From the sequence record MN850590.1: a stretch of DNA of 64,000 bases. The stretch is one strand, 5' to 3'. Origin of the DNA: Escherichia phage moha. The notes below the pieces were generated by a model that worked only from the letters and a program-made list of their open reading frames with translations, searched no databases and was not told where the DNA came from. Below, one piece after another: positions 34,614 to 52,686 of this stretch. A program made the position numbers and the translations under genes. Each line of letters starts with the position of its first letter. Within the stretch, counting starts at the first letter, position 1.

Positions 34614-34652
34614 GTTTACATCTTGATAGGACTATGTTATAGTAGTCCTATC
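34614..34652 (+). promoter_or_regulatory. promoter-early stem-loop (PeSL-type) cassette, copy 1
   Basis: GTTTAC, spacer, then GATAGGACTA-tgttatag-TAGTCCTATC: a perfect 10-bp inverted repeat around the TG-t-TATAGT -10. Confidence 0.65.
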
Positions 34653-34680
34653 AAAACAAATGAGTAAATGGAGAAATAAA

Positions 34681-34866
34681 ATGAAACGCGCTGAACTGAT
34701 TCGTAATGTTGCTGTAGTAATTGCTTCAATGGCTTTTAGTTTTTCGATGTTTGTAGGATTCATTTGCGGACTACTGACAACAACTGAAAATTCTATCTCA
34801 TTGGTAGTAGCATTTCTAATCGGTTTAATCGCTATCGTTATGGATAAAATTGCAAAAGGTGAGTAA
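34681..34866 (+). CDS. small membrane protein (61 aa, hydrophobic)
   Basis: ATG after a GGAG in the conserved leader; the ORF track start (34660) is probably upstream of the real one. Confidence 0.5.
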   Translation: MKRAELIRNVAVVIASMAFSFSMFVGFICGLLTTTENSISLVVAFLIGLIAIVMDKIAKGE

Positions 34867-34867
34867 A

Positions 34868-35230
34868 ATGAAATATCACGTATATGCGGATTTTGAAGCA
34901 AATCCTTCTAAAGACCCTGATTGTCGTTTGATACGCAAACCATTTGATTCAGCAGCTCAAGCATGGACTTGGATTAAATCTAAATCGCCTGGTTATATGT
35001 TCTTTGAAGTAGTCGATGACAATGGTACACTGCATCCAGAACCTACAGAAACTATTAATTTCCTTCTGTTTGCTGGTTACGACTGTTATCCTCTTGGCGG
35101 TATTGATGATCTTGTTGCTACAGGAAAAACTGTTGAGGCTCTTCGCGAAATTTATAAAAACGCAGAAGAAAATTTTGACTGGTATCATATTGTTGATGCT
35201 CACACCTTTGAAGTGGTGGAACATTCATGA
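34868..35230 (+). CDS. hypothetical protein (120 aa)
   Basis: ORF with start coupled to the upstream stop. Confidence 0.5.
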   Translation: MKYHVYADFEANPSKDPDCRLIRKPFDSAAQAWTWIKSKSPGYMFFEVVDDNGTLHPEPTETINFLLFAGYDCYPLGGIDDLVATGKTVEALREIYKNAEENFDWYHIVDAHTFEVVEHS

Positions 35231-35517
35231 TTCTTTATGCTAAGGTAAAATCCGTTGAGAATGGATATGAAAGCGACCGAGCTGCAGCTAAAGCACTAGT
35301 CGATTACTATGGTATTTTGACCCACTTTGAAGTTGAAAAGGTTTACGTCGACCGTTCATCTTCACAGGTTAAATTACTTTGGGAAGACCGCAAATTTAAT
35401 AGTGTGAACTTTGATTTCTTTATTGAAACAGAAAAAGGTCCTCTTGAATATGATATTTTCAAGAATCCTTTGAAATTACGTTGCATTGAATATAATTACA
35501 TTAATATGGTACGGTGA
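35227..35517 (+). CDS. hypothetical protein (96 aa)
   Basis: ORF with ATGA overlap to the upstream gene. Confidence 0.5.
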   Translation: MILYAKVKSVENGYESDRAAAKALVDYYGILTHFEVEKVYVDRSSSQVKLLWEDRKFNSVNFDFFIETEKGPLEYDIFKNPLKLRCIEYNYINMVR

Positions 35518-35521
35518 GTAA

Positions 35522-36037
35522 ATGAATATTTGTTTAGGCAGTACAATTCCTAAGGGTTACGTAATTGATGTCACTACTTGGGAAAATGACGGCGACAACT
35601 ATAAAACTAAAACGTTGTTTGGTGTAGAAGAGCATGAGCTCCAACAGTTTAAATATCTTTTGAAGAAATTTAAGAGCCGTCATTCCAGCACTAAAGCTGA
35701 ACGTTACTGTGGTAATACACTATTCAGTGATTGTTCGCTTTTAATCTATGAATACTTGGTTGAAGGATTGTTCTCAGACCAGCTTTATCCAGAATTCATT
35801 AAAAAGGTCTTTGATATTGAAGTCGACCTTGGTAATAAATCTGAAGAAGACGAATCGCGTGTATTTGACCTGTTCCATGAGAATGGATATTTAGTATCAG
35901 AAGGTCTCATTGATATTCTTGGTCATGCTTCTGAATATTATGATTATGATTTCTTGCGTGTAGTTGAATGTGTTGAATTTGCTTATATTGAAGAAGAAAT
36001 CGTTTTGCCGACTGTTAAAATGATTGATTTGCTTTAA
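35522..36037 (+). CDS. hypothetical acidic protein (171 aa)
   Basis: ORF in the co-directional early cluster. Confidence 0.55.
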   Translation: MNICLGSTIPKGYVIDVTTWENDGDNYKTKTLFGVEEHELQQFKYLLKKFKSRHSSTKAERYCGNTLFSDCSLLIYEYLVEGLFSDQLYPEFIKKVFDIEVDLGNKSEEDESRVFDLFHENGYLVSEGLIDILGHASEYYDYDFLRVVECVEFAYIEEEIVLPTVKMIDLL

Positions 36038-36116
36038 GAATTATGTGTTATTATTAATTCATACCCTCTATTACCAAAGGTGCTCTAAAGTGCCTTTCAT
36101 AATAGAAAGTTATTTA

Positions 36117-36191
36117 GGCCCTGTAGCTCAATGGGAGAGCTGTCAGCTCATAACTGATAGGTAGCTGGATCGAAACCAGCCAGGGTCACCA
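36117..36191 (+). tRNA. tRNA with CAT anticodon (Met, or Ile2 if C34 is lysidinylated)
   Basis: Manual fold: acceptor GGCCCTG/CAGGGTC, D-stem GCTC/GAGC, anticodon stem GTCAG/CTGAT with loop CT-CAT-AA, T-stem GCTGG/CCAGC, discriminator A and encoded CCA. Confidence 0.8.
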
Positions 36192-36194
36192 ATC

Positions 36195-36271
36195 CGAGGC
36201 ATAGCTCAATTGTATAGAGCAACGGACTTCTAATCCGTAGGTTGAAGGTTAGAATCCTTCTGTCTCGACCA
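36195..36271 (+). tRNA. tRNA-Arg (TCT anticodon)
   Basis: Manual fold: acceptor CGAGGCA/TGTCTCG, D-stem GCTC/GAGC, anticodon stem ACGGA/TCCGT with loop CT-TCT-AA, T-stem GAAGG/CCTTC with loop TTAGAAT, encoded CCA. Confidence 0.8.
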
Positions 36272-36289
36272 ACTTTAAGTGAGGAAAAT

Positions 36290-36634
36290 ATGAAAGGCAA
36301 TATTTATCTGGTAGTTCATGACTTAACGTTTTATTTTAACGAACGTGAAACAGTTATTTCCGACCGGTTGATTAATTCGTTATATCAACACGCTGATTAC
36401 GTTTATTTCCAAAATGAATTTGGCCATTGGAAGTTTCTTAAAAACCGTTCAGGGTTAACTAGTTTTGAATACTTTGACCGTAAAGACCTTTTAAACGAAA
36501 TTCCATTACAACATCGGTTCCAGAAACGCGAATCACTATACTATTGTCGTCATATACCAAATGCTGAATGTGTTAATGAAGCGATTAATCTATGGCGGCG
36601 GCGTCGAGAGCAAATTGATGATATGCCAAAATAA
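36290..36634 (+). CDS. hypothetical protein (114 aa)
   Basis: Start taken at the ATG after GAGGAAAA, downstream of tRNA-Arg; the ORF track start (36242) overlaps the tRNA. Confidence 0.5.
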   Translation: MKGNIYLVVHDLTFYFNERETVISDRLINSLYQHADYVYFQNEFGHWKFLKNRSGLTSFEYFDRKDLLNEIPLQHRFQKRESLYYCRHIPNAECVNEAINLWRRRREQIDDMPK

Positions 36635-51596: not shown

Positions 51597-51623
51597 ATAC
51601 TAATATCTAACCAAGAGGTATAT

Positions 51624-51836
51624 ATGCAGCAATTAAACGAAAGACAACTTCGTAATCTTACTGTAACCCAATTGGATGAAATCCGAAGAGAATTAGGACA
51701 TTCTATTTCTCATTTAAACGAGGATATCCGTCAAACTGGTTCTAAAGCTGATTATACACGCAAGCGCAAGCTGGAAAAATACCTCACAGATGTTAAGGCC
51801 GTCCAAAGGCGAAAAATAAATACTGGCCAAAATTAA
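51624..51836 (+). CDS. hypothetical protein (70 aa)
   Basis: ORF after an AAGAGG Shine-Dalgarno. Confidence 0.5.
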
Positions 51837-51848
51837 CAGGAGGCCTAT

Positions 51849-52151
51849 ATGGCCTTAAGAGCGATAGCTGTCATAGCGATGCTGGGGTTTTTTGCAGCAA
51901 CAACTCCTATCGTTGGTACTGCACATATCGACCCATATTTTGATAACTTTATGGAATCAGGGATTAAAAACGTATATACTTTGTTTGAAATTCAAAATGT
52001 CGAGAATTCTGAAAAATTCTATAAGTATATGGCAAAGCATTACAAAAATAGCCCCTGTGATGATGCATTTGAATGTTATGAACAAGGCATAAAAACTGCC
52101 AGACAATTTGCCGAGTTCATGAAAATAAAATTAGAGCCTACATCTATCTAA
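51849..52151 (+). CDS. rI: lysis inhibition regulator RI (antiholin)
   Basis: 100-aa ORF with an N-terminal signal-anchor and conserved DPYFDNFMESGI...FEC pattern; recognisable as T4 RI. Confidence 0.75.
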   Translation: MALRAIAVIAMLGFFAATTPIVGTAHIDPYFDNFMESGIKNVYTLFEIQNVENSEKFYKYMAKHYKNSPCDDAFECYEQGIKTARQFAEFMKIKLEPTSI

Positions 52152-52156
52152 TTTAC

Positions 52157-52190
52157 TAGCCCCTTCCGAAAGGTCGGGGCTTTTTGGCAT
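52157..52190 (+). terminator. rho-independent terminator (exact copy of the 34-nt element at 36945)
   Basis: TAGCCCCTTCCGAAAGGTCGGGGCTTTTTGGCAT. Confidence 0.8.
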
Positions 52191-52196
52191 CTATCA

Positions 52197-52248
52197 GTTT
52201 ACTTCTCCTCAGGTTGTGTTATAGTAAACCTTACTTACTAGAGGAGAA
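52197..52248 (+). promoter_or_regulatory. early-type promoter with a Shine-Dalgarno-complementary upstream arm
   Basis: GTTTAC, then TTCTCCTC..., TG-t-TATAGT, and ...GAGGAGAA. Confidence 0.55.
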
Positions 52249-52252
52249 CGTT

Positions 52253-52432
52253 ATGTCACGTAAAGAAAAAATTTCTAAGTTAATGTTTTTGATTGAAGAG
52301 TACGCTAATGCGGTATCTGATTGGGAAAATGCTCATGGTTGCGAAGATGGAGACATCGACATTAACAGAGCTATGAAAAAGATGGCTGACACCCACACCG
52401 AATTGCAAATGTATGTTAACGAGATTATGTGA
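52253..52432 (+). CDS. hypothetical small protein (59 aa)
   Basis: ATG after GAGGAGAACG; the ORF track start (52184) would precede the promoter. Confidence 0.45.
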   Translation: MSRKEKISKLMFLIEEYANAVSDWENAHGCEDGDIDINRAMKKMADTHTELQMYVNEIM

Positions 52433-52439
52433 GGATATT

Positions 52440-52649
52440 ATGCTTTACGATTATACTGGAAAATCTGAAGACGGTGTACTTGAACTTTTACCTGAAAGCG
52501 CTGAAGATGACGATATGGCGATGGTGATGTTTTGTAAAAATGGTCCTGGGGATAAGGGATGGATTTATCTTCGTCAAGAAAATGACTTAATTGTTTTGGA
52601 CCCTAAACAAGTTGAAGAGCTTTATCAACATTTAAAACACAATCGGTAG
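52440..52649 (+). CDS. hypothetical small acidic protein (69 aa)
   Basis: ATG after a GAGGA Shine-Dalgarno. Confidence 0.45.
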   Translation: MLYDYTGKSEDGVLELLPESAEDDDMAMVMFCKNGPGDKGWIYLRQENDLIVLDPKQVEELYQHLKHNR

Positions 52650-52686
52650 TTTACAACTTGATAGGACTATGTTATAGTAGTCCTAT
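52649..52686 (+). promoter_or_regulatory. PeSL-type cassette, copy 4
   Basis: GTTTAC, then GATAGGACTA-tgttatag-TAGTCCTATC; identical to copy 1. Confidence 0.65.

Follow-up and report, generated by a model that had tools for sequence, protein, structure and literature searches.

Why should an early promoter be placed, copy after copy, in the loop of an inverted repeat? The question is raised by a stretch of 64,000 nucleotides from Escherichia phage moha (sequence record MN850590.1), called the window here, in which cassettes made of an early promoter, a hairpin, a Shine-Dalgarno sequence and a start codon recur. The answer that we consider probable is that these are regulatory cassettes of the promoter-early stem-loop (PeSL) type. 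RNA started at a cassette's own promoter would lack the 5' arm of the hairpin, read-through RNA arriving from upstream would fold, one class of hairpin would bury the Shine-Dalgarno sequence of the following gene, and the cassettes would also serve as patches of homology for recombination.

The window comes from a Mosigvirus (RB69-like) genome and holds its early region, 57B-ipI-tRNA-e-denV-regB-tk-nrdC. A megablast search with positions 34000-43000 matched 908 phage records, the closest of which (95-97% identity) were the Mosigvirus coliphages MM02, Shf125875, AlbertHofmann and phiC120. According to the annotation of Shf125875 and three other relatives, the gene order on the + strand from about 33 to 64 kb is 57B-ipI-(trna.x)-tRNA-e.x-nudE-e-denV-ipII-vs.x-regB-vs-tk-rI-mobD-nrdC.x, which is the classic hyperplastic region of T-even phages.

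The family A element

The most conspicuous of the repeated elements, family A, has the form GTTTAC-N-GATAGGACTA-TGTTATAG-TAGTCCTATC. A first-pass annotation had placed copies at 34614, 41183, 42478 and 52649, and all four were recovered in a motif search. The 28-nt pattern GATAGGACTA-N8-TAGTCCTATC matched at 34625, 41194, 42489 and 52660 (0, 1, 2 and 0 mismatches, respectively) and gave zero matches across 100 dinucleotide-preserving shuffles, i.e. none is expected by chance. Every full copy has the repeat 5 nt past the -35 element GTTTACA and the extended -10 element TGtTATAGT in the loop, as had been described. The repeat had also been called a perfect one of 10 bp, which holds at 34625 and 52660; the copy at 41194 contains a G.T and that at 42489 a T.T at the outermost position. 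Once the flanking TTG/CAA is included, the RNA stem comprises 13 pairs closed by a 6-nt loop, and the four full copies are stable when folded as RNA (-12.7 to -18.6 kcal/mol, z -5.1 to -7.3). A search of Rfam found no family that matches the hairpins, two tRNAs being the sole matches.

Copy 1 (34614-34683, + strand) lies directly after the stop codon of ipI. Its -35 GTTTACA is followed by the 13-bp hairpin at 34623-34654, with the -10 TATAGT (34638-34643) in the loop, and then by GGAG and the ATG at 34681 of a membrane-type open reading frame (ORF) of 61 aa; the fold has -18.6 kcal/mol (z -6.2). Copy 4 (52649-52709, + strand) has the same arms and the same folding energy of -18.6 kcal/mol (z -7.3), and precedes a hydrophobic ORF of 36 aa with its ATG at 52707. 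In copy 2 (41183-41243, + strand; ATG at 41241; -16.0 kcal/mol, z -6.3) the left arm is GATAGGGCTA, which makes a G.U with the right arm. This mismatch (GGGCTA/TAGTCC; G.T in DNA, G.U in RNA) is kept in five genomes.

Copy 3 (42478-42539, + strand; -10 TACAGT; ATG at 42537; -12.7 kcal/mol, z -5.1) had been reported to carry complementary changes in both arms, which was a misreading. The left arm is TATAGGACTA, and when T-ATAGGACTA at 42489-42498 is set against TAGTCCTATT at 42507-42516 the outermost position is T.T. In relatives the same position is G.T (MM02) or T.C (AlbertHofmann), and it is therefore degenerate rather than compensated. The truncated copy noted near 38339 exists as a half copy (38323-38383, + strand; ATG at 38381 of an frd.3-like ORF), in which the -10, the right arm and the +1 block are intact (38324-38364). 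Its left arm has been replaced by TAAGTAAGTTTA, so that it forms no hairpin (best stem 4 bp).

Two classes of stem among the early promoters

Likely early promoters were sought as GTTTAC-N16-18-TAnnnT with a Shine-Dalgarno sequence and an ATG after it. The scan gave 21, all on the + strand, 20 of them within 34-63 kb and one at 1804. Judged from the motif, all copies appear to be built of GTTTAC, a spacer of 16-17 nt and TGnTAnnnT. They are preceded by A-rich sequence (consensus AAA at about -40; flanks aaaacag or aaataa), and their consensus contains a conserved block, AnACCTATCAAA, from -6 to about +5. This block fits the preference for C at -3 to -1 that the available part of a survey of RB69 early promoters describes (PMC1524935).

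Pairing was measured as the longest perfect stem that the spacer can form with the stretch running from the -10 up to the ATG. A stem of at least 7 bp was found in 10 of the 21 promoters, compared with 33 of 398 combinations (8%) in which a spacer was paired with the downstream segment of another promoter. The candidate promoter at 40296, which has no stem and lies 60 nt from the next ATG, was included in this test and excluded as a cassette from the scoring of breakpoints described below.

In all cases the 5' arm falls between the -35 and -10 elements, and two kinds of stem can be told apart. Class a comprises family A, 34260, 38609 and 57020; here the spacer is paired with what immediately follows the -10, namely the conserved discriminator/+1 block (A)nnCCTATCAA, so that the 3' arm falls on the conserved promoter block AnACCTATCAAA. 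In class b, to which 45494 (denV) and 48960 (regB) and, less strongly, 52198 and 37551 belong, the part of the spacer next to the -35 forms an anti-Shine-Dalgarno sequence. RNA folding of nine cassettes gave -12.6 to -21.6 kcal/mol (z -3.1 to -7.3).

Three class a cassettes have arms unrelated to those of family A. At 34259-34325 (+ strand), upstream of ipI, the arms are AGGATGAT/ATCATCCT around the -10 TACTAT (-15.4 kcal/mol, z -5.3); this is the inverted repeat previously noted at 34268. At 38608-38681 (+ strand), upstream of an e.6-like ORF, they are GAGAGCA/TGCTCTC around TATAAT (-12.6 kcal/mol, z -3.1), a genuine inverted repeat that starts at 38622 and not at 38617 as first recorded. The third, at 57019-57077 (+ strand), has AGGTCTAT/ATAGACCT around TATTAT and precedes an nrdC.8-like ORF (z -3.8). 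The end of the class a hairpin is 8 to 25 nt upstream of the Shine-Dalgarno sequence, varying by cassette.

Among class b cassettes, the spacer TTCCTCCAAG at 45493-45552 (+ strand) pairs with CTTGGAGGAA in the Shine-Dalgarno region of denV (-17.8 kcal/mol, z -5.7), and the spacer TTCTCCTCTAGTTG at 48959-49018 (+ strand) pairs with CAACTAGAGGAGAA in that of regB (-21.6 kcal/mol, z -5.4). The two weaker cases, both on the + strand, are TTCTCCTC/GAGGAGAA at 52197-52255 (z -1.8) and TTCTTCTAAGG/CCATAGAGGAA at 37550-37609 (one G.U and one mismatch; z -2.6); canonical terminators lie just before them, at 52157-52190 and 37488-37521, respectively.

Partition-function folding separated the two classes. 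For the four class b cassettes (45494, 48960, 52198 and 37551) the computed probability that the Shine-Dalgarno sequence is unpaired was 0.00 in read-through RNA, compared with 0.25-0.61 in RNA started at the cassette's own promoter (0.57 for denV, 0.25 for regB). Family A showed no consistent shift in this probability between the two RNAs.

Another arrangement was seen in the denV promoters of several T4-like lineages (L033, L039, L040, L050 and L052). There the Shine-Dalgarno sequence pairs with sequence just downstream of the -10, or overlapping it, rather than with the spacer (AGTAGTCT/AGACTACT and GATGTCTTCC/GGAGGACATC are examples). The own transcript of these lineages might thus also be partly masked, as a third arrangement.

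Conservation of pairing and the strand that folds

The first-pass annotation had argued for selection on the hairpin from copy 3 among others, and copy 3 does not bear the argument out; support came instead from orthologous promoters, in which the arms vary and pairing is kept. Promoters of regB, denV and nrdC.8-like genes were taken from IMG/VR and analysed stem by stem in Python; a MAFFT alignment of the regB promoters put the arms out of register and was excluded from the pair counts. Lineages of regB have arms that differ and are nevertheless complementary: CTAGTTG/CAACTAG, CTTGACTG/CAGTTAAG (with two G.U), CTTTATG/CATAAAG and CTGTAAGT/ACTTACAG. The same was found for denV (CCAAG/CTTGG, CTGTAG/CTACAG, CGTTTG/CAAACG and CTGTG/CACAG). 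In the regB, denV and nrdC.8 sets, stems formed in cis had 10.8, 7.9 and 12.1 bp, and those formed across promoters 7.5, 6.6 and 8.9 bp, respectively. The class, too, changes among orthologues: the -10 of regB is surrounded by GGGCCATG/TATGGCCC in some lineages, some have GATAGGGTTA/TGACCCTATC or AATTGTGA/TCACAATT at denV, and nrdC.8, with its class a stem in the window, has a 13-15-bp stem between spacer and Shine-Dalgarno sequence in T4-type phages.

Within family A, one base pair could be followed through a series of orthologues of the copy at 52649. It is A-U in the window (TTGATAGG...CCTATCAA), G.U in MM02 (TTGGTAGG...CCTATCAA) and G-C in phiC120 and Shf125875 (TTGGTAGG...CCTACCAA). Two more one-sided changes in this series are both wobbles. 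Across 23 distinct family A sequences, all 8 one-sided changes in pairs 6-13 give wobble pairs; in the alignment the sole unpaired cell among pairs 5-13 is at pair 5, and the three outermost pairs are often open.

The mismatches indicate which strand folds. When 67 distinct promoter stems from all loci were compared, the single mismatches in their interior were G.U in 18 cases, A.C in 2 and of other kinds in none; after removal of obvious shared ancestry the tally was roughly 13 to 2. Transitions yield G.T and A.C equally often, and the large excess of G.U therefore marks the sense strand as the folded molecule. On this evidence the conclusion that the pairing itself is under selection is right, and the most economical reading points to a hairpin that acts as sense-strand RNA.

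A protein-binding site would be expected to behave otherwise. A perfect 10-bp palindrome centred on the -10 could be a double-stranded DNA operator, through which a dimeric protein of phage or host would shut down a subset of early promoters. In favour of this, two reviews call the mechanism of early-promoter shut-off unknown (PMC2988021, PMC3014915), and the same sequence is shared by Tequatrovirus, Serratia phage 4S and T4-like phages of Acinetobacter. A duplex operator would not, however, impose substitutions that keep G.U on the sense strand only, and neither it nor a two-stranded cruciform gives the asymmetry between G.U and A.C. Moreover, the same architecture is found with unrelated arms elsewhere, orthologous promoters swap arm sequences and classes, and the half-sites are 18 bp apart, centre to centre. 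We regard the operator as very improbable.

The wide distribution of family A can be accounted for in another way. In the GenBank phage collection the 64-nt cassette has matches in 364 phage records, at 5-10 places per Mosigvirus genome and 1-2 in Tequatrovirus, and Serratia phage 4S and the Acinetobacter phages Maestro and AB-Navy4 have palindromes that are nearly identical to it. (The exact family A core was found in 6 stretches of IMG/VR, a number too small for statistics.) In Maestro a second promoter, at position 735, has the same TATAATAGTTCTATCAAA block and no hairpin. The simplest explanation for the identity across genera, and one that also takes this point away from the operator, is a 3' arm conserved as part of the promoter, with the 5' arm held to its complement by selection for pairing. 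As the source of the identity, horizontal transfer of the cassette was also considered, and it was set aside, the 3' arm block being present in hairpin-less promoters too; recent transfer is not required, since promoter constraint and selection for pairing suffice. The conservation of family A at almost every base, from coliphages through to T4-like phages of Acinetobacter, might also suggest that its hairpin or palindrome is the specific target, as RNA or DNA, of a phage-encoded factor and, together with the anti-Shine-Dalgarno class, part of the rapid shut-off of immediate-early genes in T4-type phages. We hold this to be quite improbable.

Terminators near the cassettes

The authors of the PeSL work proposed that the cassette is a terminator fused to a promoter, and the stem-loops could accordingly be terminators or attenuators of upstream transcription. 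In phage phi1, one PeSL stem-loop inserted between a promoter and lacZ cut expression about as much as rrnB T1, according to the available part of that report (PMC2839356). The layout of the moha promoters also agrees with such a role: strongly hairpinned promoters abut the preceding stop codon and have no other terminator, and promoters with a canonical terminator just upstream (37551, 52198 and 55264) have weak stems or none. This layout is consistent with a hairpin that deals with read-through RNA, in whatever manner.

No T-run follows the promoter hairpins, however; A-rich sequence, CAAAACAAA or similar, stands in its place, and a terminator scan calls none of them. Terminator activity of the stem-loops is thus unsupported by the sequence, and the missing T-run argues against efficient intrinsic termination. 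The same region does contain canonical GC-rich stems with T-runs, at 39281, in the element repeated at 36945, 37488 and 52157, and at 55216. The 3' arms of class b, furthermore, lie on the Shine-Dalgarno sequence, which termination does not need. A terminator function for the promoter hairpins is therefore considered unlikely, and RNA hairpins acting on read-through transcripts are preferred.

The canonical terminators form a small repeat family of their own. A 34-nt terminator (AGCCCCTTCCGAAAGGTCGGGGCT then TTTTGG) occurs three times, at 36945-36978, 37488-37521 and 52157-52190, two copies being identical and one 76%. Those at 37488 and 52157 stand 30-40 nt upstream of an early promoter, a terminator-then-promoter layout like that of PST-type PeSLs, and a similar terminator (GGGGACCTTCGGGTCCC) lies ahead of the promoter at 55263.

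Recombination junctions

The gene content flanking the cassettes was compared with that of four relatives by BLAST over 33-64 kb. About 33 distinct block boundaries were found, of which about 10 fall inside promoter cassettes, although cassettes make up roughly 7% of the sequence.

Several junctions could be placed within individual blocks. In Shf125875 the Ip7 gene has a family A cassette on one side and a second cassette (GATAGGGT/ACCCTATC) on the other; the corresponding site in the window has a single cassette without Ip7, and the alignments overlap in the block of Shine-Dalgarno sequence and ATG (34670-34686). At the 42478 cassette, MM02 has an extra promoter and a 201-bp ORF as a module, with the left junction in GTTTACA and the right one in the family A hairpin. 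The Tequatrovirus AndreasVesalius has a near-identical module (a handful of differences in ~300 nt) at another locus, where it stands upstream of a 969-bp ORF and is likewise followed by a family A cassette. Homology with phiC120 resumes at 38344, inside the loop/-10 of the half copy.

Cassettes without a hairpin gave comparable results. Two of them (55263-55612, + strand; -35 elements at 55263 and 55543) flank an ORF at 55322-55540 that is absent from MM02 and AlbertHofmann. In these phages a single, chimeric cassette is present, and its crossover falls within the shared TATAGACCTATC; in MM02 it is the chromosomal product that excision of mini-circles between tandem cassettes would be expected to leave. 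A 66-codon ORF for a hydrophobic protein (58639-58839) is present in the window and lacking in MM02, AlbertHofmann and phiC120, with the junction at the -35; the comparison at this site covers these three relatives, as the Shf125875 locus does not extend over it. The junctions placed within cassettes include one at 58888.

These junctions could be taken to mean that the inverted repeats are recombination hot spots as DNA cruciforms or hairpins, for example as substrates of endonuclease VII, and serve gene shuffling rather than expression. Several indel junctions do lie inside cassettes, and the PeSL authors speculated, in the part of their paper available, on a recombination protein specific for the stem-loop (PMC2839356). 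The junctions map, however, to whichever block is shared (-35, -10/+1 or Shine-Dalgarno-ATG), as plain homologous recombination predicts, and the hairpin is not needed, because hairpin-less promoters (55263/55543 and 58886) also serve as junctions. A cruciform would, in addition, need both strands paired, and the stems avoid A.C-type mismatches and tolerate G.T. That the repeats exist for recombination is judged improbable; the likely substrate is homology in the three conserved blocks, not the hairpin.

Proposed mechanism

The PeSL-type reading can be put together as follows. Each cassette would provide a strong T4-type early promoter, with the 5' arm in the spacer and the 3' arm downstream of the -10. 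From the geometry, transcription would start within the 3' arm or past it, ~7 nt after the -10; RNA from the own promoter could then not form the hairpin, because a start past the -10 leaves out the 5' arm. Read-through RNA from upstream promoters would contain both arms and fold. In class b this fold would bury the Shine-Dalgarno sequence, so that the gene would be translated only from its own immediate-early promoter, a prediction that fits regB since its product is described as tightly controlled (PMC3014915). The class a hairpin would most likely be an intercistronic mark on read-through RNA, with a putative role in attenuation, pausing, processing or 3'-end protection. As dispersed repeats of 50-80 bp with three conserved blocks (-35, -10/+1 and Shine-Dalgarno-ATG), the cassettes may also act as patches for the insertion, deletion and swapping of modules.

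Several points weigh against this reading. The start sites and the amount of read-through are assumptions for this phage, and a literature search found no usable genome-wide map of T4 start sites or terminators. Class a, to which the flagged family belongs, neither masks the Shine-Dalgarno sequence nor has a T-run. The orthologous sequences are related by descent, so the pair counts are not counts of independent events, and G.T is the least destabilising mismatch in single-stranded DNA as well. About half of the promoters have no stem, hairpin-less cassettes are junctions too, and the excess of breakpoints in cassettes, clear against random positions, is mild against gene junctions, about one quarter of which carry a promoter.

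Other repeats in the window

Further repeats were noted that involve early promoters or the genes around them. The promoters at 1804-1870 and 38111-38175, 36 kb apart, share an identical block of ~46 nt from the -10 to ATGACTA (GATACTATAGACTTATCAACTACAGAGGAGTAAACAAAATGACTA), and the ORFs below them, of 89 and 54 aa, are unrelated; the copy at 1804 is on the + strand within an otherwise minus-strand region of late genes. A 65-nt promoter repeat (58859-58923 and 59849-59913, 95% identical) lies upstream of neighbouring ORFs of 309 and 316 aa. It has a small stem within the spacer only (AACCA/TGGTT) and none across the -10. Within the e.4/e.3 genes, Shf125875, MM02 and AlbertHofmann are ~240 bp longer than the window at 40283-40295, beside which, at 40295, stands a promoter-like GTTTACG-N17-TATAAT with neither a stem nor a nearby start codon.

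The internal-protein (IP) leader (MKTY.EF) starts four genes, at 34320-34345, 45207-45232, 45967-45992 and 46292-46317, i.e. ipI and three IP-type genes, and replacement breakpoints relative to other phages lie just past one leader (46317-46323). Two small ORFs next to each other contain a 55-nt direct repeat (62759-62813 and 63363-63417, 76% identical), which is suggestive of local duplication of a gene.

Relation to known systems

The feature is real, non-random and functionally constrained, and it is explained in outline by the literature on PeSLs. Statements on that literature refer to the available parts of the papers by Arbiol et al. 2010 (PMC2839356) and Comeau et al. 2014 (PMC4122927). 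In the definition of Arbiol et al., a PeSL combines an early promoter of sigma70 type, A/T-rich sequence upstream of it, a stem-loop for which overlap with the -10 is allowed, and a Shine-Dalgarno sequence with start codon; PeSLs separate small ORFs of hyperplastic regions, and indels that distinguish close relatives coincide with them. The first-pass annotation had proposed this match, and it extends to every sequence-level feature of the definition. As far as sequence can tell, the moha cassettes have the promoter spacing, the A/T-rich upstream region, a stable stem-loop, the Shine-Dalgarno sequence and start codon between small ORFs, and the indel junctions.

Like the PeSLs of RB49 and phi1, the moha cassettes are composites of early promoter, stem-loop, Shine-Dalgarno sequence and ATG, situated between genes of hyperplastic regions and before small ORFs. 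The stem-loop likewise falls between the -35 and -10 elements or overlaps the -10, which in family A is in the loop as in the commonest subclasses of RB49 and phi1, and indels of close relatives are joined within the cassettes. Unlike them, moha has promoters of T4 type (GTTTAC, TGn and the conserved +1 block) instead of TTGACA/TATAAT, and its stems are AT-rich, without polyG/polyC and with no T-run after them. Pairing of one class with the Shine-Dalgarno sequence is not described in the available parts of the two PeSL papers.

The elements of PST/T4 and of the T-even IP loci are closer in some respects. In the former the stem-loop is just upstream of a TTTACW-N17-TAYWAT promoter (PMC4122927), and the latter are PeSL-like elements with AT-rich stems on T4-type early promoters (Repoila et al. 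1994, as cited in PMC2839356). The moha cassettes have the same type of promoter, variable AT-rich stems and a link to IP genes, copy 1 standing in the ipI locus after ipI. They differ from PST in that the -10 of family A is within the loop, while PST-type upstream stem-loops are also present here as the terminators at 37488, 52157 and 55216. With intrinsic terminators the hairpins share a stable RNA stem in an intercistronic position. They differ in having no U-tract right after a GC-rich stem, their stems being AT-rich, and canonical T-run terminators are separate elements of the same region.

The present results would extend the PeSL picture to RB69-like phages (Mosigvirus), which the available parts of the two PeSL papers do not cover; the available part of the RB69 early-promoter survey (PMC1524935) makes no mention of hairpins. 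What goes beyond that literature, as far as those parts reach, is the wobble signature of the sense strand and the anti-Shine-Dalgarno class. Since pairing is kept on the sense strand, the stem-loops would be RNA elements of read-through transcripts and not DNA recombination signals. For annotation and phage engineering, the cassettes mark natural joints for the exchange of accessory genes. A known mechanism is thereby refined, and no current view is overturned.

For class b the nearest parallel is found in the T4 genes e, soc, 49 and I-TevI, where a hairpin sequesters the translation initiation region and contains an internal promoter (Uzan & Miller 2010, PMC3014915). This sequestration does not extend to family A; it was obtained by folding for the class b cassettes. 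As in the T4 genes, the class b promoter is in the 5' half of the hairpin, the read-through fold is predicted to mask the Shine-Dalgarno sequence, and the promoter is placed so that its own transcript, with the start taken from the position of the -10, would lack the 5' arm. The T4 genes use late promoters to delay expression, whereas the internal promoter of class b is early. Class b would thus be the mirror image of the T4 cases, and restriction to the immediate-early period is predicted, with regB, denV and similar genes translated only from their own immediate-early promoters.

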